IMG/VR virus record: IMGVR_UViG_3300009183_000059
Coordinates: 1 to 64,000 of that record
Reading direction: 5' to 3' (one strand)
Length of the DNA: 64,000 nucleotides
Origin: a virus
Shown: positions 410 to 12,320 of the stretch, in pieces
How the letters are laid out: each line of letters starts with the position of its first letter
Numbering within the stretch: position 1 is the stretch's first letter
Translations under genes and position numbers: made by a program
Notes under the pieces: model-generated
Told to the model about the DNA's origin: nothing
Seen by the model: only the letters and a program-made list of their open reading frames with translations
Databases searched by the model: none

Positions 410-1423
410 TTATGCGATTGCTAAAACTGTTTTCACAATTTTTGCTAAGCGATTTTTTTCTGCGTTGATTTGTGCGTCAAATCCACTTGCAGCAGCGAGC
501 AGACTTTCTGTCTTTCCACCACGAGCAGTGCGAGCCCAATCAAGGCGTTCGGTGAGTGCATTTAGTGCGCCCCAACCAGTGCCAGCAATCATTCCGTTGA
601 ATTCACCAGTGTATAAATCGTTGATTGTATCCACTTTTGTTTCCCACTTTTTGATTGCGCCTTTTGTATCCTTCTCAGGCTTTGGATAAGCCGCAAGAAT
701 GATGTCGTTGAATTGCTTAGCATTGACTGACTTCTCATAGAGAGCGTTAGCCAACTTTGAGAATTCGTCCATATAGAAATCTGCCATTCCTAGTGCTTGA
801 CGAGCAATAGCAATCTTTCCTTCTGCAGTTTGTGTGTGGCGAATTTTGAATGATTGCTTTACGCCACCCTTTTTCTTAGCACCCAATGCAAGATTGAGAG
901 TGTTAGCGCACACAACACGAACAGGTGTAATGCTTGCTTGAATAGCAATAGAGCCATCGTGTGATGTGTTGATGAGCAAATAAGTTTTTACAACATCATT
1001 GACACCAGTAGGGTCTAGAACAACTTCACGCTCTAGAGCAAGAGAGCCGAATACAACACGACCACCCTTGATTGAACCAGCAGTTTCCCAGCGACCACCG
1101 CCGTCTAGAATGTTATCGCCAAATGCAAATAAATCTTCATTTTGCAATGGAACATAACGCTGACCAACTACACCAAGAATATCGGTTTGTGTGTTGTCGG
1201 TAGGATTAGTGCGTAGGACATACTGATAATCCTTATCAGATGTTAGGTGATTTGGAACTTCCAAATCTTCTAAGCGGACATTCCATCCATTTAGATTTGC
1301 AAGAGATAGCATTTCAGATGTATTTACTTCATTAGTAAATACGGTTCCTAAACCGTGCCAAGCAGGTTCACGGAATGAGGCAAAAGATGTTTTGCCGTTT
1401 TGACTTTCGAGGTCGTGCGCCAT
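410..1423 (-). CDS. DUF932 / TIGR03299-like phage-plasmid protein
   Basis: Motifs REPAWHGLG, WETAGSIKGGRVVF, YLLINTSHDGS, TPVRVVCANTL, IRHT, GTGWGALNALTE. Confidence 0.9.
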   Translation of the reverse strand: MAHDLESQNGKTSFASFREPAWHGLGTVFTNEVNTSEMLSLANLNGWNVRLEDLEVPNHLTSDKDYQYVLRTNPTDNTQTDILGVVGQRYVPLQNEDLFAFGDNILDGGGRWETAGSIKGGRVVFGSLALEREVVLDPTGVNDVVKTYLLINTSHDGSIAIQASITPVRVVCANTLNLALGAKKKGGVKQSFKIRHTQTAEGKIAIARQALGMADFYMDEFSKLANALYEKSVNAKQFNDIILAAYPKPEKDTKGAIKKWETKVDTINDLYTGEFNGMIAGTGWGALNALTERLDWARTARGGKTESLLAAASGFDAQINAEKNRLAKIVKTVLAIA

Positions 1424-1452
1424 ATTTTCCTTCTTTCTTTGTTGTTATTTCA

Positions 1453-1482
1453 AGTATAACAGGATGAACTGACAGATGTCAA
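1453..1482 (-). promoter_or_regulatory. Early promoter with TTGACA -35, TGTCAG (-26 type) element and extended -10 TGtTATACT
   Basis: Minus strand TTGACATCTGTCAGTTCATCCTGTTATACT upstream of the DUF932 gene. Confidence 0.75.
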
Positions 1483-1512
1483 TTCGTATAGGTAAAAATG
1501 TCCAATTTTCGG

Positions 1513-1558
1513 TGTGATCAAATTCACACCCGTAAGCCTGTGGATAAGCTGTGGATAA
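1513..1558. promoter_or_regulatory. CRP-type box (TGTGA-N6-TCACA, 1513-1528) and two DnaA boxes (TGTGGATAA, 1539-1547 and 1550-1558)
   Basis: Exact consensus matches in an intergenic region. Confidence 0.65.
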
Positions 1559-1590
1559 CCCGCCTCGCATTTCTGCGGGATTGTCAAGTC

Positions 1591-1776
1591 CTATTTCATT
1601 TTAGTAATTGACTCCCAAAAAGTGGGAGGGTCTTCATTTGCTTGCGCCTTAACATCATTGTAAGTTTTATCATTTAGTAATGCGGTGATAATAAAAAACG
1701 GCGCAATAAAGAAGAACATAAGTAGTAGCACAAAACCAATGCCAATTACATAGCCAAGAAAGTCATAGAACCGCAT
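1591..1776 (-). CDS. Small membrane protein
   Basis: 61 aa ORF with long hydrophobic N-terminal segment, co-oriented with neighbours. Confidence 0.65.
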   Translation of the reverse strand: MRFYDFLGYVIGIGFVLLLMFFFIAPFFIITALLNDKTYNDVKAQANEDPPTFWESITKMK

Positions 1777-1787
1777 AATCTATTGTC

Positions 1788-2258
1788 TCACGCTTCTACT
1801 AGATTTGGCAAATCGTATCTATTTTCAGTTATCTTTGTTTGGTCAATGTCAGACATTTTAGATTGCCATAATGATAAATTGGATTCAAGACGGTCACCAA
1901 AAACTCTTACAAAATCTGCAAGGTCTACGGTCTCACCAGTCAAACAAGATTTAAGTACATCGATACCAAGGTACACTCGACTATCCCCGCTCCACCCAAT
2001 TGAAACAGGTACCAGGCACGTACGGTACTCATCTTGAATCCAACCTACCCCCTCTCCACAAATAACAGCGTGTTTAGCACATCCATATGCATCAGGGTCA
2101 TTAATCATAACTAGTACTAGATCTTCTACAGAATGATTCTTCATATATTCAACGGGGTCCATATCATAAGTGGCAACCTGGATATCCCGTGCACGTTCCA
2201 ATAGCTTAGCTTGATCAAGCTTATAGCCAATAAATCCTCGTGTGCGTTCTCTTGACAT
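1788..2258 (-). CDS. Hypothetical phage protein
   Basis: 156 aa ORF, AGGAGA RBS, operon context. Confidence 0.7.
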   Translation of the reverse strand: MSRERTRGFIGYKLDQAKLLERARDIQVATYDMDPVEYMKNHSVEDLVLVMINDPDAYGCAKHAVICGEGVGWIQDEYRTCLVPVSIGWSGDSRVYLGIDVLKSCLTGETVDLADFVRVFGDRLESNLSLWQSKMSDIDQTKITENRYDLPNLVEA

Positions 2259-2267
2259 ATATATCTC

Positions 2268-3017
2268 CTATTTCTTAGTAGCGCTAAATCGAATGTCGGC
2301 CTTACCATAAACGCATAGGCCACAAGATACGCAGGCGGACCCATTGCTTGAGATTAATGGAATTGCTTTTAAATTCTCAGGACATTTAGCCCCGACTTTA
2401 CCAGTCAACTCTTTCATCTTATCAGCGGTTACGGCAAAAGTTTTTCCAAGGTATGCAAGGCGGACCTCATAATCCTTTTTTAACTCTTCTCCAATTGTAG
2501 CATTTTCATCATCGGTTGAAAAGTATAGGGAAAGATTAGTAATCTTATTTAGAATTAGAGCGGCAGGCTTCACACGTGTGTATACCCAAAATTGAATGTC
2601 GGGATGATTAGTGATAACAGTCTTCCAGGCATAAGTGTAAGTATCATTAAAAAAGTCCCCGTCCCAGTGAATGCGGAATAACTTAGGGGCAGATTTCTTA
2701 TCACAATCAGCAATAAATTCTACAATCATCTCATCTAATAGTCTAACCATAGTTTCGCTATCGGCGTCTTTTAGTAGGGCCCAGTTATGAAGAAGATTAG
2801 TCTTTACTCCCTTGAATAATTTTTCAAGTTTCCCAGCGTAGCAAACAGTCTCACAGATAGACGTTGCACCAGGACAAGAAAAATCTTTTCCTGCAGGTAG
2901 CCCGAACGTGTTCGCAATTGCGGCTTGCTTTCCATTTTTTGTGACAAGGTTAGCCACCTTTCTGTCATTAGAACGTTTTAGTTTCATAGGAATAATTGTA
3001 TCGGAGGCCACTGACAT
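2268..3017 (-). CDS. Gp88-like (radical-SAM-related, Cys-rich) phage protein; alternative start at 2987
   Basis: CPGATSICETVCYA, FRIHWDGDFF, FWVYTR, NLSLYFSTD and C-terminal CPE...CVSCGLC motifs typical of Gp88-like proteins. Confidence 0.7.
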   Translation of the reverse strand: MSVASDTIIPMKLKRSNDRKVANLVTKNGKQAAIANTFGLPAGKDFSCPGATSICETVCYAGKLEKLFKGVKTNLLHNWALLKDADSETMVRLLDEMIVEFIADCDKKSAPKLFRIHWDGDFFNDTYTYAWKTVITNHPDIQFWVYTRVKPAALILNKITNLSLYFSTDDENATIGEELKKDYEVRLAYLGKTFAVTADKMKELTGKVGAKCPENLKAIPLISSNGSACVSCGLCVYGKADIRFSATKK

Positions 3018-3160
3018 TATAGGTCTCCCATTTCAGCGTCGGCCATACGTGTTTCCATATAGTCATCACGATACCAAATTGGATCGGATGAAGAATAGCC
3101 TTTCATACAGATAGTGCAGATAGAGTAGTTCGTGCAGTAACAAGAATTAATATCGTTCAT
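3017..3160 (-). CDS. Unannotated 47-aa Cys-rich microprotein
   Basis: Hand translation MNDINSCYCTNYSICTICMKGYSSSDPIWYRDDYMETRMADAEMGDL; GAAAGG RBS; TAATG overlap with next gene. Confidence 0.7.
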   Translation of the reverse strand: MNDINSCYCTNYSICTICMKGYSSSDPIWYRDDYMETRMADAEMGDL

Positions 3161-3304
3161 TAATTCGCCTTTCGTTCGGGTGTATAACAATACTAGCAGA
3201 TATTTCAGTGGATATCAATTTCTACTCGTAAGTAGCGTGTGATGTTGATCACATGCCGCCTCGCATTTTCAGCGATTTTGTCAAGCAGCTCGTATGTGGT
3301 GTGT

Positions 3305-3465
3305 TGAGCAGTTTTGGCACTTGCTCAGGTGGTCTGCGTCTTTAGGTCGGCAGTAACCTTGCTCTATAGTATTTCTGTGATCGCCCTAATCAGCCTGGCG
3401 AAAGCAGTTTTAACACTTGCTCAGGTGCTTCGCAATTTATCGTTATGCGAGAACGATTGCGCTTT
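3305..3465 (-). ncRNA. Tandem array of H-type pseudoknots, including copies 2 and 3 of the CTGAGCA motif
   Basis: ATCGTT/AACGAT with TCGCA/TGCGA; GCAC/GTGT with AGCA/TGCT; AGGT/ACCT with CTGC/GCAG; CAC/GTG with TGAGCA/TGCTCA; no credible ORF. Confidence 0.55.
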
Positions 3466-3467
3466 AG

Positions 3468-3650
3468 TTATGCGCCAATTTTTACCATTGCCCACCGCAT
3501 ACCATTTTCGGTTTGCAGAGATAACTTAGTTAGGTTTGGTCGGACAGAAACTATTTCACGAATAGAACCTGTAACGCCTGACTTACCAGTTGTGAAAGTA
3601 TCTCCTAAGCGGTAGAACTTTCCTTTTGTAACATCTAGAATTGGTGACAT
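3468..3650 (-). CDS. Small beta-rich protein, paralogue of 4290-4436
   Basis: Shared GxTFTTxKSGVxGxIxExV...RW motif. Confidence 0.75.
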   Translation of the reverse strand: MSPILDVTKGKFYRLGDTFTTGKSGVTGSIREIVSVRPNLTKLSLQTENGMRWAMVKIGA

Positions 3651-3680
3651 TTTATTTCCTTCTTTCGGGTAGTTGTTGTG

Positions 3681-3770
3681 TTGAGCCTTTTCACAACTTG
3701 CTCAGGTTGTAAGAGTTCTTACTTACGACATTGGACTAGAAACTCTTAGAAACTGTCCCTGTTTCGATTA
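3681..3770 (-). ncRNA. Structured intergenic element plus pseudoknot copy 4
   Basis: GAAAC/GTTTC stem, GGAC/GTCC pseudoknot, TAAGAGTT/AACTCTTA stem, then ACAAC-CTGAGCA-A-GTTGT-GAAAAG-GCTCA. Confidence 0.5.
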
Positions 3771-3775
3771 TCTAA

Positions 3776-4198
3776 TTACAGATAACGAGCAATAGCATTG
3801 TAAGTGCTTGTGCTAACCAATTCCTCATCTGTCATTTTCAGAATACGGATTGCGTTTGACATTTCCTCTTTCATCTCACGATACTGATGAGAGTGAATAA
3901 CCTCGAAATCCTTTTCAGGTTCAGCAGGGAAGTTGCCTTCCTTTGTGATGATGTCGAAATCAACATTGAGGGTGTTGTTCCATTGACGATAGTTTGTGCG
4001 TAGGTTTTCAGCCTTTGAGAAGTTCTCAATAGCCCACTTAGCAATTTCCTTTTTCCAAGCCTCTTGCTTCTTACCGAACTTTGCTTCCTTTTCGGTTTGT
4101 GTAGCATAGTCTTGCTCTAGTTCTGCTAACTTTGCCTCTAGTGCCTTGATAACTCTAGCAGTAGGGATTTTTACATTTATAGATTTGCCTCTTGACAT
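3776..4198 (-). CDS. Hypothetical helical phage protein
   Basis: 140 aa ORF, AAAGGA RBS, own TGTCAG-N10-TAGAAT promoter at 4243-4264. Confidence 0.8.
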   Translation of the reverse strand: MSRGKSINVKIPTARVIKALEAKLAELEQDYATQTEKEAKFGKKQEAWKKEIAKWAIENFSKAENLRTNYRQWNNTLNVDFDIITKEGNFPAEPEKDFEVIHSHQYREMKEEMSNAIRILKMTDEELVSTSTYNAIARYL

Positions 4199-4289
4199 TT
4201 GTTTCCTTTGTTAGTTGGGTGGTTTGGGTTTCTTACTATCTAATTCTAGCAGGGGCTACTGACATTTTGCCAATAGCCCCCGATTAGGA

Positions 4290-4436
4290 TTACTTCGCTG
4301 TTGTCCAGCGAGTTTGACCTGCGACATCAAGTTTGATACGATAAGAGCCATTATCGTTCTTGACTACTTCTGTGATTGTTCCTTCTACGCCAGACTTTGC
4401 TGTCGTAAAAGTTTCACCGATTTTTGGTGTTGTCAT
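4290..4436 (-). CDS. Small beta-rich protein (start revised to MTTPKIG), paralogue of 3468-3650
   Basis: GAAAGG RBS precedes ATG at 4436; the longer ORF call runs through the promoter at 4468-4489. Confidence 0.75.
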   Translation of the reverse strand: MTTPKIGETFTTAKSGVEGTITEVVKNDNGSYRIKLDVAGQTRWTTAK

Positions 4437-4628
4437 TTTTGCTTCCTTTCCGTTTGTTGTTATTACAAGTCTAGCAAATCCTACTGACATTATCAAATCG
4501 TAAATCGGTCAAATCGGACATTTTTTCCACAAATTCTGTGATAAATGTCATAATGTCGTAACTTGACAAAGCCCTGGAAATGCGCCCCGCATTTTTATGC
4601 AGTCAGCTGAATATTTATTCAGAAATAT

Positions 4629-4748
4629 TTATTCAGAATATTTATTTTTATATTTTTGTTTTCGTGAATAAACTTTTTTTGATTGCACATAAGTTGCAGC
4701 GTTTGATCTCCGCAATTCTTGAATGCGTGTAACTTTTTCTTTTATCAT
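4629..4748 (-). CDS. Unannotated 39-aa basic microprotein
   Basis: Hand translation MIKEKVTRIQELRRSNAATYVQSKKVYSRKQKYKNKYSE; follows 4754-5026 in operon. Confidence 0.6.
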   Translation of the reverse strand: MIKEKVTRIQELRRSNAATYVQSKKVYSRKQKYKNKYSE

Positions 4749-4753
4749 TTTTC

Positions 4754-5026
4754 CTAATCCCATTCTGGTAGCCAAGCGTCTAAGTGGTGTTGTTCTGCAA
4801 TTGCGTGTGCGGGTGCAGTTGTTTTATTTTTATACAATACGCCTTCAGGCAATTCAATTTCAGTATTGCCATCGCCTGCGTGAATTGCATCTATTGCGTC
4901 AATGCAAGGTTGCACCATAGTAAGTGGAACGGGCGGGTAGTGATTACCCTGTAAGTGATAACCAATAGCCTGTTCAAGTGATAGGTCAAAGTTAGTTGCT
5001 AAGTCAATTGCTGTATTGTTTCCCAT
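4754..5026 (-). CDS. Hypothetical phage protein (HLQGNHYPPVP motif)
   Basis: 90 aa ORF, coupled to upstream ORF. Confidence 0.75.
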   Translation of the reverse strand: MGNNTAIDLATNFDLSLEQAIGYHLQGNHYPPVPLTMVQPCIDAIDAIHAGDGNTEIELPEGVLYKNKTTAPAHAIAEQHHLDAWLPEWD

Positions 5027-5238
5027 TATGCATTTTCCATTTCTTTTAGTAGTTTAGAGTTTCCCATACTATCAGACTTGACTGACAATTCACAATCACG
5101 GCACTGGTATTCATAGCGAATAGTGCCTTTTCTATACATACCGCCAAGAGTAGCAATACACATATGAGTCATTTTTTCTGAGCATACTGGGCAAGGGAAT
5201 GAAATCTGATCCCCTAGCCCACCAATAGTAATTGTCAT
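5026..5238 (-). CDS. Zinc-ribbon protein
   Basis: CPVC...CRDC; overlapping start/stop with neighbours. Confidence 0.7.
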   Translation of the reverse strand: MTITIGGLGDQISFPCPVCSEKMTHMCIATLGGMYRKGTIRYEYQCRDCELSVKSDSMGNSKLLKEMENA

Positions 5239-5450
5239 CTAGTTACCACCATTCCACTACGATAGAAAACTTTTGTATAGCATTTGCCAGTTGGCGTGTA
5301 TAGATTTACAGTTGAATACTCGTTAGCCATTCCCCAGTCTGTAAAACTGAAGAAAGATTTCCAAGCGTCAAATTCGCTTTCATAGCGTTGCTTCCAATGA
5401 GGGCTTTCCTCATAGTCATACTGACAAGATACTAGATACTCATAGTCCAT
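5235..5450 (-). CDS. Hypothetical protein (start revised to MDYEYLV)
   Basis: GAAGGAG RBS before ATG at 5450; the longer call overlaps another ORF. Confidence 0.7.
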   Translation of the reverse strand: MDYEYLVSCQYDYEESPHWKQRYESEFDAWKSFFSFTDWGMANEYSTVNLYTPTGKCYTKVFYRSGMVVTR

Positions 5451-5452
5451 AG

Positions 5453-5593
5453 TTATGCTCCTTCGGGTGTTGTAAATAATTTTACCTCTTGGCACTGACA
5501 AGTTTCGACATCGTAGTCTAACTCGTTGCCCCAGAAAATAAGTCCTTCTCCGTGGCATTCATCGCAAGCAAATCGCATTACTGAGTTTATCAT
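5453..5593 (-). CDS. Unannotated 46-aa Zn-finger-like microprotein
   Basis: MINSVMRFACDECHGEGLIFWGNELDYDVETCQCQEVKLFTTPEGA; TAATG coupling. Confidence 0.7.
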   Translation of the reverse strand: MINSVMRFACDECHGEGLIFWGNELDYDVETCQCQEVKLFTTPEGA

Positions 5594-5715
5594 TAGATAG
5601 CACCTTCCTGAAATAATCCAATTTCAATGTCTAGTAATTCTGCGGGTGTCGCATTATCCAAGTTTATCCAACCCGCACCCTCGTTGTCAATTCTAAAAAT
5701 TTCAATGTATCCCAT
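5593..5715 (-). CDS. Unannotated 40-aa acidic microprotein
   Basis: MGYIEIFRIDNEGAGWINLDNATPAELLDIEIGLFQEGAI; GGAGG RBS. Confidence 0.7.
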   Translation of the reverse strand: MGYIEIFRIDNEGAGWINLDNATPAELLDIEIGLFQEGAI

Positions 5716-5718
5716 TAT

Positions 5719-5934
5719 TTATTCCTCCGTCTTTACTGCTACAGTTCGGTAAGTTCTGCGACCAAAATTATTGTATCCGCTATTAGGTGCAACCTCTACA
5801 AGATAAGTTTCGCAACCTTCATACCAAATACCTTTAGGGTGTTTTTCGGCAGATACGATTTCACCTTGCAAGGTGCGTGAGTAGTAGTTTTTTCCTACAA
5901 GTAGGTTTTCGATTGTGTATACATTTGCTGACAT
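5719..5934 (-). CDS. Hypothetical protein
   Basis: 71 aa ORF, GAGG RBS, tandem TGTCAG promoters at 5964-5985 and 6040-6061. Confidence 0.75.
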   Translation of the reverse strand: MSANVYTIENLLVGKNYYSRTLQGEIVSAEKHPKGIWYEGCETYLVEVAPNSGYNNFGRRTYRTVAVKTEE

Positions 5935-6168
5935 TTGCCAACCTCTTTCTTTTTGTTGTTACAAGTCTATCATTTGCTACTGACATTTTCGGGAAGCCAC
6001 GCCGTAAATGATAAACTATTTTGTTTTTCTTACTCTGTAAGTCTATCAGAACCGACTGACATTTTTCTACCTACTAGCCAGTAAGTTCATAATGTGAGAC
6101 GCTCAAGCCGTGTGATAAATCTCACAAAAATTTCCAGGTTATCCACAGACACTCCGTAAGTTATCCCC

Positions 6169-6216
6169 AGACACGCCCGAGTGCGGGGCGCTGTCGGGCG
6201 TGTTGCATTTAGTTGA
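6169..6216. repeat. 48-bp exact direct repeat, copy 1 (contains 10-bp inverted repeat ACACGCCCGA/TCGGGCGTGT)
   Basis: AGACACGCCCGAGTGCGGGGCGCTGTCGGGCGTGTTGCATTTAGTTGA, identical to 7303-7350. Confidence 0.9.
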
Positions 6217-6221
6217 AAGCT

Positions 6222-6248
6222 TGAGCAGTTTTAGATCGTGCTCAGGAT
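6222..6248 (-). ncRNA. Pseudoknot motif copy 5 (ATC-CTGAGCA-C-GAT-CTAAAAC-TGCTCA)
   Basis: Directly after the stop codon of 6256-6471; compensatory P1. Confidence 0.55.
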
Positions 6249-6255
6249 TTTTATT

Positions 6256-6471
6256 TTATTTTAGCAGAGCGTGTAATTCTGGCAGTTGGCAAATTTCTTT
6301 TACACCGCAAGCATTTTGAAATTTTGCAAAATCAAAATTAGGATTATCAGCAGAAAACATTTCGCCGAATTCAAAAACCAAATCTTCAAAAGTAAATTGG
6401 TCAATCAAATCAGAAAAAGATTCTAGAACGCTTGAAACTTCAATAAAAGTTTTACGAGTATAACGAGACAT
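6256..6471 (-). CDS. Small phage protein, TRK...DNxxF...KF..AC family; paralogue of 8607-8765
   Basis: Motif shared with the hand-translated ORF at 8607-8765. Confidence 0.75.
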   Translation of the reverse strand: MSRYTRKTFIEVSSVLESFSDLIDQFTFEDLVFEFGEMFSADNPNFDFAKFQNACGVKEICQLPELHALLK

Positions 6472-6683
6472 TAATTTTTACCCCATTTCAAAGTGGCATA
6501 AGAATTATTTTTATTTATTTCTTCCATTGCATTTAGAGAGTCAATAGAACCAATAAAACTTCCAGCAAAAAGTTTTTGAATAAAACTTTCAGGCATTGTT
6601 GCAAGAGCGGAAATTACATAGTCGGGAGCCTTGTGCTCGTCAATCTCTGCAATTAGATTTACAGTGTGTGAAATTGTTATCAT
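6471..6683 (-). CDS. Hypothetical protein (start revised to MITISHT)
   Basis: TAATG coupling with 6683-6868. Confidence 0.7.
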   Translation of the reverse strand: MITISHTVNLIAEIDEHKAPDYVISALATMPESFIQKLFAGSFIGSIDSLNAMEEINKNNSYATLKWGKN

Positions 6684-6868
6684 TACTTTACCGCCTTTCC
6701 TTTTAGAACACCACGAACACCGAGCAAGTCGCAATCGAACTTGACGGAAATACCAACAGGGAGTTGTGTTGGATAAGTGTTGATGAATTGGGCAACCGCA
6801 CCTTTAGAAGGAAGGTTGATTTTTGATACTGAACCTGAGAAGGTTTCTAGTCTGATAGTGTAAGTCAT
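6683..6868 (-). CDS. Hypothetical protein
   Basis: 61 aa, AAAGGTGG RBS, promoter at 6905-6926. Confidence 0.75.
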   Translation of the reverse strand: MTYTIRLETFSGSVSKINLPSKGAVAQFINTYPTQLPVGISVKFDCDLLGVRGVLKGKAVK

Positions 6869-6965
6869 TTCTGACCACCTTTCTGTTGTTTGTTTATAGG
6901 AATAAGTCTAGCATAGGGGGCTGACATTTTGAGGCATTTAGCCCCAAAAGTCGGTGTGAGATACC

Positions 6966-7121
6966 TCACAGGCAGTTGATACAATTACAACCTTTAGAGG
7001 AGAATAAATACTTTAGCAATTCCTTGCGAGTATAAGCATCCAAGCCATAAGAGGATTTTACTCCGCCATTATGGTATTCGTGAACGATAGTAGAGAATAG
7101 AGTTTCATTTAGTGTAGTCAT
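6966..7121 (-). CDS. Unannotated 51-aa microprotein, paralogue of 7941-8096
   Basis: MTTLNETLFSTIVHEYHNGGVKSSYGLDAYTRKELLKYLFSSKGCNCINCL; AAAGGTGG RBS. Confidence 0.75.
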   Translation of the reverse strand: MTTLNETLFSTIVHEYHNGGVKSSYGLDAYTRKELLKYLFSSKGCNCINCL

Positions 7122-7302
7122 TTGAGACCACCTTTCTTTTTAGAGATTTACTTCTTTTTCAATCTTTATACTAGTAAGTATAGCAGGGGGGTCTGACATT
7201 TACTGACCAGTAATCGGTCAAATCGGACATTTTGAAATGTGAGTAATCTCACATTATCTTTTTACGCTCAAAATTCCAGTGTGTTCATAATCACACCTGT
7301 AA

Positions 7303-7350
7303 AGACACGCCCGAGTGCGGGGCGCTGTCGGGCGTGTTGCATTTAGTTGA
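7303..7350. repeat. 48-bp exact direct repeat, copy 2
   Basis: Identical to 6169-6216. Confidence 0.9.
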
Positions 7351-7389
7351 TCGTTGTCAAGTGCAACACGAAATTATTTTATTTTATTT

Positions 7390-7482
7390 TTAGTAACACT
7401 CGCTACACATTGCATAATAATATTCACCATCATCAGTTACAAACTGAGTAGTGTCTTGATTACAAGATGAACATTTATTCAT
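7390..7482 (-). CDS. Unannotated 30-aa CxxC...CxxC microprotein
   Basis: MNKCSSCNQDTTQFVTDDGEYYYAMCSECY; GAAAGG RBS. Confidence 0.65.
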   Translation of the reverse strand: MNKCSSCNQDTTQFVTDDGEYYYAMCSECY

Positions 7483-7603
7483 TAGTATTCCTTTCATCAG
7501 TTACACATTTACATTGTGTTACAAGTATTGTATCAGTTTCCACTGACACAATAGCAAGAGTATTGCAATTATCGCAAATCCACATTCCAGCAATCTGATT
7601 CAT
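7475..7603 (-). CDS. Unannotated 42-aa CxxC...CxC microprotein
   Basis: MNQIAGMWICDNCNTLAIVSVETDTILVTQCKCVTDERNTNE; GAAAGG RBS. Confidence 0.65.
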   Translation of the reverse strand: MNQIAGMWICDNCNTLAIVSVETDTILVTQCKCVTDERNTNE

Positions 7604-7605
7604 TA

Positions 7606-7704
7606 TTACCAACACCTTTCGCATAAAGCAGTTATAAATTCTGAATCTTCAATTGACATTTCCATTACGAATTCATCGCAACCTTTACAATTTATAGTTA
7701 TCAT
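7606..7704 (-). CDS. Unannotated 32-aa CxxC...CxxC microprotein
   Basis: MITINCKGCDEFVMEMSIEDSEFITALCERCW; GGAG RBS. Confidence 0.65.
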   Translation of the reverse strand: MITINCKGCDEFVMEMSIEDSEFITALCERCW

Positions 7705-7941
7705 TTATTCACTCCAACCATTTAGATTTTGAAATTCGGAATAAGGTAATTCAATTGTGAATACATTATTATTTTTATACACATTAGCATTTCTGCCTAT
7801 TGTGTATTTTTCTAGGATTACAGTAGCGATACCGCTATCCTCATTTAGAGATACAATTTCCACAACCTTGTGGTTTATGTATTTTGAAGGGGGCTGAAAG
7901 AATTTATCTTTAGCGATTTTATTAGCAAGAGATAGTGACAT
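7705..7941 (-). CDS. Hypothetical protein (start revised to MSLSLANK)
   Basis: TAATG coupling with 7941-8096. Confidence 0.7.
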   Translation of the reverse strand: MSLSLANKIAKDKFFQPPSKYINHKVVEIVSLNEDSGIATVILEKYTIGRNANVYKNNNVFTIELPYSEFQNLNGWSE

Positions 7942-8096
7942 TATTTTGCACACTCGCAATCTTTATGAGTAGGGATAGAGAACAGATACTTTAGCAAAGC
8001 TTTACGCTCTGCAAAAGAAATTTCGGGGTGAAAGTTTTTCACTCCTCCGTGTTGGTATTCAAACACGATTTTATTTAGTGTATTTTCTGATAACAT
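7941..8096 (-). CDS. Unannotated 51-aa microprotein, paralogue of 6966-7121
   Basis: MLSENTLNKIVFEYQHGGVKNFHPEISFAERKALLKYLFSIPTHKDCECAK; AAGGAG RBS. Confidence 0.75.
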   Translation of the reverse strand: MLSENTLNKIVFEYQHGGVKNFHPEISFAERKALLKYLFSIPTHKDCECAK

Positions 8097-8329
8097 TAGG
8101 CATACACTCCTTTTGCAATTAGAGAATCTAATTTAGCAGATAATTCATCTGCTTCATCAGCAACCCACTCTGAAATTTCATAGTGGGACATAAATTCTGC
8201 AAGAGTCATTAGACCCTTGTATTCATTACAGGATACGCAGAAACTTTCGTTAGCGTATTGTGAACAGAAGGCGCAAACAATTTTGTTTGCATACTCTACA
8301 GGGAGAGTGTTTATTGTAAATGTAGTCAT
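8096..8329 (-). CDS. Zn-binding small protein (start revised to MTTFTIN)
   Basis: CAFC...CVSCNEYKG; AAAGGTGG RBS. Confidence 0.7.
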   Translation of the reverse strand: MTTFTINTLPVEYANKIVCAFCSQYANESFCVSCNEYKGLMTLAEFMSHYEISEWVADEADELSAKLDSLIAKGVYA

Positions 8330-8606
8330 TTTAGACCACCTTTCTAGTTTGAGAACCTTTCTCAACTTTCTTTATACTAGAAGTATAACACCTACCACTG
8401 ACATTTTGGGGGGTTACTCGCCAGTATTTTCAAAGTATTTTTGTGATTTGCACCACATAGACTTATCCACAGACACGCCCGACGCCGCCCCGCATTTTTT
8501 GCGATCTGTCAAGTAGACACACCGCAAAAAACTTTTTATTTTAGATTAATAAAAGATAACCAAATAAAGTTACGCAGATTATTAAGAAAATAAATTCTTT
8601 CACGAA

Positions 8607-8765
8607 TTAATTCTCCAAACAAGCTTCAAAAAACTTTTCTTCGTTAAACCTTTCGTTATCTTTTTTAAACATATTAGAAAAATCTAATAGCAAACCAGCG
8701 GGAGCATTTTCAAAATGCTTATTTAGAATTTCAGCGGTAGCGATGTAGTCTTTACGTGTCATCAT
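8607..8765 (-). CDS. Unannotated 52-aa protein, paralogue of 6256-6471
   Basis: MMTRKDYIATAEILNKHFENAPAGLLLDFSNMFKKDNERFNEEKFFEACLEN. Confidence 0.75.
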   Translation of the reverse strand: MMTRKDYIATAEILNKHFENAPAGLLLDFSNMFKKDNERFNEEKFFEACLEN

Positions 8766-8875
8766 TAGTTTAGTCCATTCTCTTTTAGGTCTTTGATTAC
8801 GGCAATGATTAGGGGGATAGTAACGCCAAGCATTACTAATTGGACGGCGGTAGTTAGTAGACGATTACTTGACAT
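8765..8875 (-). CDS. Unannotated 36-aa membrane microprotein
   Basis: MSSNRLLTTAVQLVMLGVTIPLIIAVIKDLKENGLN; TAATG coupling. Confidence 0.6.
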   Translation of the reverse strand: MSSNRLLTTAVQLVMLGVTIPLIIAVIKDLKENGLN

Positions 8876-9011
8876 TCTTAGTTTTCCATTTCTTATAATA
8901 CTTATAACCTACCGCTAATAGGGCGGTGGTAATTAGTAACTGCCAAGAAAGCGCAATATAGCACCATTCTGTGTCGAGCATAAAGCCGTAGTTATCTAGT
9001 TCAATAGTCAT
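8865..9011 (-). CDS. Unannotated 48-aa membrane microprotein
   Basis: MTIELDNYGFMLDTEWCYIALSWQLLITTALLAVGYKYYKKWKTKNVK. Confidence 0.6.
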   Translation of the reverse strand: MTIELDNYGFMLDTEWCYIALSWQLLITTALLAVGYKYYKKWKTKNVK

Positions 9012-9163
9012 TAGTTCTGTTCTACCTTTCGCATATGGGCTACTACATTTTTAGAAACCTTTTGTAATTCGGATACTGTCTTATTCATTTCATCTGCTGA
9101 TGAAGCCTTGAAATCAACGCCCAAGAGTTGAGCGCCGTCCCATAGTGAGTATGTTATTGTCAT
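9011..9163 (-). CDS. Unannotated 50-aa protein
   Basis: MTITYSLWDGAQLLGVDFKASSADEMNKTVSELQKVSKNVVAHMRKVEQN; promoter at 9201-9222. Confidence 0.7.
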   Translation of the reverse strand: MTITYSLWDGAQLLGVDFKASSADEMNKTVSELQKVSKNVVAHMRKVEQN

Positions 9164-9246
9164 TTACTGTTCTTCTTTCTGTTAGTTTGTTTATATGATA
9201 ATACTAGTGGATAGGGGTGACAAATGTCAAGATTAGATCGTGTGAG

Positions 9247-9459
9247 TTACGCCACACGATTAGCGAATACCCACTTACTTTCGTTAGGGGTAAGGTAGCG
9301 GTGAGAGATAAGACCCTCAGAGGCTACCATATGGACATATGCCATACGGCTAATGTAGTTACCATTAGCAAGGCGGAAGAGTTCATTACTCTTAGTGTTA
9401 GAGGAAGCCATAGAGTGGTTAGGCTCTACTACTACTGATAATGTATTTAGTGAATTCAT
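9247..9459 (-). CDS. Hypothetical protein
   Basis: 70 aa, GAAAGGA RBS, long structured leader. Confidence 0.7.
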   Translation of the reverse strand: MNSLNTLSVVVEPNHSMASSNTKSNELFRLANGNYISRMAYVHMVASEGLISHRYLTPNESKWVFANRVA

Positions 9460-9634
9460 TTTAGAATTCCTTTCTTTTTTATTCGGTTAGTATTTCTAAC
9501 CTTTTTGCTGACCTAGTTTATTTGCTCTTTCGGGAGGCTCACCTAGGATTTTCTTTTATTTAGTTTTTCTTATGTAGTAAGACTATCAGACCAAACCCTG
9601 AAAGTCAAGGCTATTTGGTGTGATGTCTACCACA

Positions 9635-9793
9635 CTAGGGCTTAGTGTATCCCTTACCCTGTGGGCAGTGGATGTCAAACTGACCTCCACACATTACACA
9701 GCGTGTCCACGCTGTGAGTCCCCCGCAGGTATCGCAAGGGGTAAGGGGGAAGGAGAAGCCTCCCGCATTTCTATTTTCATACAGTGAATTCAT
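9635..9793 (-). CDS. Unannotated 52-aa CxxC...CxxC microprotein
   Basis: MNSLYENRNAGGFSFPLTPCDTCGGLTAWTRCVMCGGQFDIHCPQGKGYTKP; GAAAGGA RBS; promoter at 9844-9865. Confidence 0.7.
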   Translation of the reverse strand: MNSLYENRNAGGFSFPLTPCDTCGGLTAWTRCVMCGGQFDIHCPQGKGYTKP

Positions 9794-10047
9794 TTGGAAT
9801 TCCTTTCTTTATTGTTAATCACCTTGATTAACTTGATACTAGTATCCTATCAGACCCCACTGACATTTTCTACTCAAAAAACGCCCAAATCGGACATTTT
9901 AAATGTGAGATACACCACATTAGGGCTATGGGCGCACTATTTGTCCGTTTTGTGCTACTCAGAGTATGAATCATACAAATTAAATGGATATTAACATTTT
10001 AGAAAAGCTAATATTGTAGTTGACTAGAAATATGATATAATTGTTTC

Positions 10048-12153: not shown

Positions 12154-12164
12154 TGTTAATTATA

Positions 12165-12320
12165 CTAGAAAAGGTCGTCTTCGTCAACTTCTTCTTTTAG
12201 ATCTACTTCATAATTCTCTAGCATTTGGGTTACCGCTCCAAAAGCATATATAGCAAAAGCAACGGCGCCTGCACCCATACCTAGAGCAACTGTACCAAGG
12301 AAGAAAGTTCTCTTCTTCAC
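12165..12320 (-). CDS. Unannotated 51-aa membrane protein with acidic tail
   Basis: MKKRTFFLGTVALGMGAGAVAFAIYAFGAVTQMLENYEVDLKEEVDEDDLF; GTGA overlap with 12317-12529. Confidence 0.65.
   Translation of the reverse strand: MKKRTFFLGTVALGMGAGAVAFAIYAFGAVTQMLENYEVDLKEEVDEDDLF

Follow-up and report, generated by a model that had tools for sequence, protein, structure and literature searches.

In bacteriophage T4, middle promoters carry a MotA box at -30 and are activated by MotA together with AsiA, a strategy known as sigma appropriation in which both the reader of the box and its co-factor are encoded by the phage; the box defines a temporal class of phage genes. In phages coupled to the host SOS response, as in lambdoid prophage induction and at LexA-controlled promoters, transcription follows from relief of repression, and most of these phages are temperate. 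The promoters considered here share features with both arrangements. They lie in the left arm of a 64,000-nucleotide stretch of viral DNA (the window; positions 1 to 64,000 of IMG/VR record IMGVR_UViG_3300009183_000059), where a block of small genes is served by a bipartite motif whose upstream half has the sequence of the box of the actinobacterial DNA damage activator PafBC. As in the T4 middle promoters, the -35 is missing and a box lying immediately downstream of its place stands in for it, combined with a -10 of the usual kind for the primary sigma factor of the host; unlike in T4, the box equals that of a host activator, and no candidate for a phage reader was found in six genomes (the contig and five complete relatives). 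As in LexA/RecA-coupled phages, transcription would be tied to a host DNA damage signal, but here through an activator box and in a family without an integrase.

The in vivo genome-wide consensus of PafBC promoters in Mycobacterium smegmatis is tGTCgg(N10)tA(N3)T, with a GTC triplet that hardly varies among Actinobacteria (PMC8635444). The upstream element occupies -28 to -23, where R46 and R50 of the PafB winged helix-turn-helix (HTH) contact GTC; these promoters have no -35 and are used by holoenzyme carrying the housekeeping sigma factor SigA, in a process of sigma adaptation that has been likened to the sigma appropriation of T4 (PMC8635444). PafBC is activated by short single-stranded DNA (ssDNA) on its WYL domains, and its level remains constant (PMC11804915).

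The minus strand of the window contains 14 matches to TGTCA(G/C)-N10-TAnnnT, all of them within positions 1453-9865. Among 100 dinucleotide-preserving shuffles of the window, none reached this count (mean 1.63, standard deviation 1.33, maximum 6). The original prediction had listed 13 sites, with every coordinate correct, and had overlooked a fourteenth at 5066-5087. It had also described the 10-nt spacing as invariant, and indeed TGTCAG-Nx-TAnnnT occurs 15 times at x = 10 over the whole 94,140-bp contig, always on the minus strand, as against zero to two times at each of the other spacings from 6 to 15. Outside the block there are only three weak matches (69104, 77845 and 77866), antisense to plus-strand genes. 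The upstream hexamer is TGTCAG at 13 of the window sites and TGTCAC at one, TG is found at -15/-14 in 11 of the 14, and the boxes and their spacing are constant while spacers and flanks vary from site to site. Most sites lack a -35, as had been stated: TTGACA at an 18-nt spacing precedes only those at 1453 and 9201. On a simple gene map, an ATG with a ribosome-binding site lies 29-56 nt downstream in 12 of the 14 cases. These sequence features mark the sites as genuine promoters that form a class of their own, serving the small-gene block of the left arm and nothing else.

The motif has the composition of a PafBC-dependent promoter of the RecA-NDp (recA P1) type: it is a 22-nt bipartite element with tGTC(g/a)g at -28 to -23, an invariant GTC within this -26 hexamer, exactly ten nucleotides before TAnnnT, and no -35. 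The match to the PafBC promoter first suggested by the original prediction extends to sequence, spacing and the missing -35 (PMC8635444), and the PafBC-type identification is solid at the sequence level. That said, the phage sites differ from host PafBC promoters in several respects. They are located in a probably lytic phage, at 11-24 copies per 11-12 kb; their -10 is much nearer to consensus and usually extended; and they drive small genes of unknown function rather than repair genes, with PafBC binding still putative.

The same promoters recur throughout a family of related viruses. With the GP88-family protein of the block as query, more than 566 related IMG/VR contigs were found, and 80 loci (1.23 Mb) were fetched. 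All 80 contain the motif, with 1054 matches on the gene strand and 39 on the opposite strand. TGTCAG is found at the 10-nt spacing 917 times; the next most frequent spacing, N5 with 183 matches, probably reflects overlaps within the same motif, and the remaining spacings give 3-80 matches each. Five complete genomes (110-116 kb, CheckV 100%) have 11-24 sites each, gathered in one block of 11-12 kb and in a single orientation. A scan of viral contigs with an over-strict DNA pattern returned no match.

A family consensus was built from 782 unique sites matching TGTCRS, in which TGTC at -28 to -25 is fixed by the search pattern. Upstream there is A at -30 and -29; position -24 is A (0.89) or G (0.11), -23 is G, and T at -22 (0.66) is followed by two G/C positions. 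Further downstream come TG at -15/-14 (G 0.84) and a TAtAAT-like -10. Positions -36 to -31 hold less than 0.2 bit of information, so there is no -35. The unique GTC-N12-TAnnnT contexts of the family include 694 with TGTCAG and 85 with TGTCGG. At the orthologous promoter of the GP88 gene, both boxes are kept in 28 of 39 loci; in these the spacer is freely variable, and the distance from the end of the -10 to the ATG is always exactly 7 nt. This pattern is, from the alignment, the footprint of a functional bipartite promoter.

The contig (37.9% G+C, 77% complete) belongs to an actinophage. Among cultured phages it is closest, though only distantly related, to the large Streptomyces members of the Stanwilliamsviridae, whose major capsid proteins are 54-58% identical, as compared with 41% for Rhodococcus phage Trina. 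It encodes a WhiB protein that scores above the Pfam cut-off and is an orthologue of the Stanwilliamsviridae WhiB (full-length identity 50-57%); WhiB proteins are characteristic of Actinobacteria and of the phages that infect them (PMC10202952). An actinobacterial host, despite the low G+C content, is well supported by gene content, because of this WhiB and the Stanwilliamsviridae relatives; the same two observations led us to reject a host among the Firmicutes, which the 38% G+C and strong ribosome-binding sites had suggested. M. smegmatis, assumed as the test organism in the original prediction, is unlikely for a phage of 38% G+C. When WhiB was used to query genome contigs, matches of 38-48% were spread over the Actinomycetota and did not resolve the host, and the cultured Planktophila phages are unrelated and measure 39 kb. 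Neither a tyrosine nor a serine integrase was found in the six genomes, so the family is probably lytic, judging from its gene content, and a prophage-induction switch was rejected.

The right arm encodes DnaB, primase, Pol III alpha, RecA, a Cas4-like nuclease, a pyrimidine-dimer glycosylase, an SNase-like nuclease and several tRNAs. Interspersed with the repair genes at 87.5-90.3 kb of the contig are five genes for tRNAs (Met, Arg, Asn, Gly and Leu). The tRNA-Leu gene extends over the GTG listed as the start codon of the SNase-like open reading frame (ORF), and the true start of that gene is therefore probably further downstream.

PafC is nearly universal in the class Actinomycetes. A PafC HTH was detected in 372 of 401 sampled Actinomycetes genomes, a tally that takes in nine unpublished genomes (G382, G052, G016, G024, G033, G045, G041, G039 and G313), none of which underlies any particular claim made here, and in all 24 small genomes of the sample. 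These small genomes are single-contig genomes of 1.3-1.5 Mb, with 44-49% G+C in six that were sampled over 60 kb each, a size and composition typical of streamlined, low-GC lineages from fresh water. In 24 of 24, recA is preceded by one coding-strand TGTC(A/G)G-N10-TAnnnT; most of these boxes read TGTCAGTGG, with TG at -15/-14 and then a LexA-box half-site. All eight large Actinomycetes genomes studied (about 71% G+C) likewise have a single recA box, followed by TGG or ACC and often preceded by AAA, and both sub-types as well as the upstream AAA occur in phage sites. A score based on phage spacers alone, which are positions left free in the search pattern, placed 17 of the 24 small-genome recA sites among the highest-scoring 0.2% of host 10-mers, above the phage median, though the 24 genomes are closely related and amount to only a few independent observations. 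When PafB from one of the small genomes is aligned with the PafB subunits in the solved PafBC-RNA polymerase complexes 7P5X and 9FND (E about 2e-36), R46, R50, K5, R8, K52, R56 and Y76 are seen to be retained, and W70 is replaced by F.

Five of the small genomes contain 9-16 loose motif matches each, a number not above a reversed-pattern control, and this equality rules out that the motif is simply the general promoter type of the host. One phage block has about as many boxes as an entire candidate host genome. In candidate host genome G274, seven TGTCRG-N10-TAnnnT sites fall within 21 kb (contig 409-436 kb), four of them 7-8 nt ahead of gene starts, a leaderless geometry. The genes driven from these sites encode a Rce1/Abi-like protease, a trypsin-like peptidase and an N6/N4 DNA methylase, and a GHKL ATPase begins 18 nt past a fifth site. 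Its gene content suggests that the cluster is a variable or defence island controlled by PafBC-type promoters, and similar clusters are present at about 400-460 kb in four more small genomes.

The explanation we favour, and consider somewhat better than an even bet, is that host PafBC reads the phage promoters by sigma adaptation. The near-consensus, mostly extended -10 would be recognised by the host housekeeping sigma factor, with TGTC(A/G)G at -28 to -23 taking the place of the -35. The host PafBC heterodimer, activated by ssDNA, would insert between the promoter and sigma region 4, and the small-gene block would thereby be tied to the host DNA-damage/ssDNA alarm. Such an alarm would likely be raised during infection, by injected or replicating phage DNA or by host DNA degraded by nucleases.

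Several observations sit less comfortably with PafBC as the reader. The need of PafBC for ssDNA is awkward if the block is among the first-expressed genes (PMC11804915). Position -29 is mostly A in the phage sites but t in the mycobacterial consensus, a mismatch tempered by the AAA found at this position in large-genome recA boxes. The small genomes are plausible candidate hosts only. The combination of an extended -10 (11 of 14 sites) and a near-consensus hexamer may work without any activator, and most phage genes have no known function, leaving room for a novel phage reader. Finally, a GTC in register occurs beside a TTG in the cultured relative NootNoot, as described next, and could be a feature of the phage lineage unrelated to PafBC.

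NootNoot and Coruscant, Streptomyces phages of cluster BE, resemble the present family in many ways: both have a minus-strand array of tiny genes with a promoter every few hundred bases in a terminal block (the long terminal repeat region), a GP88-family gene and TAGACT-type -10 sequences, and both share orthologous capsid, WhiB and HTH proteins with it. The upstream elements differ. TGTCRG boxes in these phages are not above control. In the NootNoot block (1-10.2 kb) a -35-like TTGnnn is followed by tGTCCy and then a TAGACT -10, and the GTC stands in the exact register of the present motif in 8 of 17 promoters; in the Coruscant block (1-11.2 kb) this is so in none of 8. The box therefore does not hold generally as an ancestral trait of the phage family. 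NootNoot promoters also have TGTCCGG..CCGGACA palindromes upstream, after terminators, and Coruscant promoters have CTAGACAAGCC or GCGCCCGGCGCC elements ahead of TAGACT/TATACT.

A phage-encoded activator analogous to T4 MotA/AsiA, made from ordinary promoters or carried in the virion, could read the -26 box instead, making the block a middle class and the likeness to the PafBC box a matter of convergence or deliberate mimicry. We regard this as unlikely, though it has points in its favour beyond the many phage genes of unknown function and the NootNoot register: ordinary -35/-10 promoters elsewhere could drive such a factor first, and three recognisable regulators with DNA-binding or transcriptional roles (WhiB, a 53-aa HTH protein and a 172-aa MerR-like HTH protein; aa, amino acids) are all conserved. 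However, orthologues of all three occur in Wakanda, Ankus, Yaboi or Coruscant, cultured relatives in which TGTCRG-N10-TAnnnT occurs at control level only, and the present lake lineage is the only one compared whose box equals the full host box. Since the regulators are common to these lineages and the upstream element differs, comparison of the genomes argues against a conserved phage factor as reader. A MotA-like activator among the head-of-block genes (86 aa and 273 aa) is ruled out by their lack of conservation in the family. WYL domains, PafC-type HTHs and sigma region 2 were not detected in any of the six genomes, and the proposal in the original prediction that the phage might encode a PafBC mimic elsewhere is thus not supported; its other half, coupling to the host damage sensor, gains from the promoter match, the WhiB-bearing actinophage genome, recA boxes in 32 of 32 actinobacterial genomes, near-universal PafC and the arginines of the candidate-host PafB. 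An unrelated factor sharing hexamer, flanks, spacing and a missing -35 with the host box would, moreover, need a coincidence.

Extended -10 promoters can function without a -35, and the phage promoters might be self-sufficient, used by host holoenzyme alone, with TGTCRG serving as a repressor site for shut-off or as a decoy that titrates PafBC. The TG at -15/-14, present in 84% of the 782 family sites as well as in most window sites, and the TAtAAT-like -10 fit such a scheme, yet it strikes us as rather improbable. An asymmetric 6-nt box held in single-nucleotide register to the -10 over about 1000 sites is typical of a polymerase-associated element, not of an operator; the same phage has extended -10 promoters without the box, after terminators near 46.9 and 50.9 kb; and TG at -15/-14 also accompanies host recA boxes. 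The sites might, lastly, be copies of a duplicated cassette or an accident of composition without a common function, and some promoters are indeed near-identical between genomes while a repeat element accompanies three of them. This idea is hardly credible and already contradicted, given spacers and flanks that differ around fixed boxes and spacing, a count reached by no shuffle, and the strand bias of 1054 to 39.

Returning to PafBC as the reader, to our knowledge its sigma adaptation has so far been described only in the response of hosts to DNA damage. A more tentative extension, which we think doubtful, is that the lytic family uses PafBC as a gene-class switch and that its replicating boxes, at 11-24 per genome, also soak up PafBC and starve host damage-inducible and defence-island promoters; this titration is suggested because there would be many strong boxes per genome copy while the level of PafBC is constant. 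Should this very abundant uncultured family indeed wire a whole gene class to PafBC, it would be the first phage example of such exploitation, and the arrangement would parallel the sigma appropriation of T4 except that the factor is borrowed from the host. Further gains would be a sequence-based handle for assigning hosts to lake actinophages, a compact, strong and possibly ssDNA-inducible promoter set for Actinobacteria, and a link between the alarm raised by infection, the defence islands of the host and the counter-measures of the phage. A literature search found no report of phage promoters with a TGTCRG box, with one cited study of PafBC and mycobacteriophage resistance falling outside its coverage.

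The original prediction took the genes of the block to be the first expressed, with incoming phage DNA ends as a possible trigger. The block resembles early "host-takeover" arrays, and homologues of GP88 are found in the terminal region of BE phages and, in L5-like mycobacteriophages, close to the right end. In the right arm, perfect TTGACA-N17-TATAAT promoters occur at contig positions 67456 and 88788, along with several near-consensus ones. Ordinary promoters also stand at the head of the block, among them TTGACG-N17-TATAAT at 12159-12187 (minus strand), ahead of the 86-aa and 273-aa genes. Judging from their sequences, these ordinary -35/-10 promoters need no activator and may fire before the block. 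In one possible order of events, nucleases and replication genes would be expressed from ordinary promoters, ssDNA would build up, PafBC would become active, and the small-gene block would be turned on. Some PafBC-independent basal activity of the block promoters is plausible as well, because most sites have an extended, near-consensus -10. Directly after the 12187-12159 promoter, ahead of the 86-aa gene, there is a strong 14-bp terminator-like hairpin (12117-12082, minus strand), which might serve as an attenuator or belong to a small RNA.

The block served by the motif comprises about 28 mostly tiny genes (410-9793), including the DUF932 gene (410-1423) and the GP88-family gene (2268-2987); these genes and all of the promoters that follow are on the minus strand. 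The site at 1453-1474, with TTGACA 2 nt upstream, lies 30 nt from the ATG of the DUF932 gene. At 2995-3016, the promoter of the GP88-family gene has an in-frame ATG at 2987, 7 nt past the -10, and the GP88 Pfam profile aligns from residue 1 of the shorter protein that starts there; these two features indicate a predicted leaderless mRNA. Leaderless mRNAs are common in Actinobacteria. Next come the sites at 4243-4264, with the ATG of a 140-aa gene 45 nt downstream, and 4468-4489, with that of a 48-aa gene 32 nt downstream. The site at 5066-5087 falls within the 3' part of a 70-aa ORF, and the next ATG is 40 nt away. A 71-aa gene follows the site at 5479-5500 (ATG 29 nt downstream), and another 71-aa gene has two promoters in tandem, at 5964-5985 and 6040-6061, situated 30 and 106 nt from the same ATG.

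Further along, the site at 6905-6926 lies 37 nt ahead of a 61-aa gene. The promoter at 7177-7198, of the TGTCAGACC sub-type, has its ATG 56 nt downstream and is found identical in several relatives. The site at 7527-7548 is inside a doubtful 42-aa ORF, that at 8382-8403 is 53 nt from the ATG of a 77-aa gene, and that at 9844-9865 is 51 nt from the ATG of a 52-aa gene. The variant TGTCAC site at 9201-9222 has TTGACA 2 nt upstream and, from this arrangement, is possibly an ordinary -35/-10 promoter. Upstream of its TTGACA there is a CRP-like palindrome, TGTGG-N6-TCACA (within 9201-9260, minus strand).

Three of the promoters have a TGTCCG direct-repeat element about 14 nt upstream of the -26 box. 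The copy at 4503-4520, upstream of the 4468 site, consists of two 9-nt units (TGTCCGATT / TGACCGATT); a second copy at 7212-7229 precedes the 7177 site, and a degenerate one at 9879-9896 precedes the 9844 site, all on the minus strand. The TGTCCG of these repeats is the reverse complement of the CGGACA repeats upstream of NootNoot promoters.

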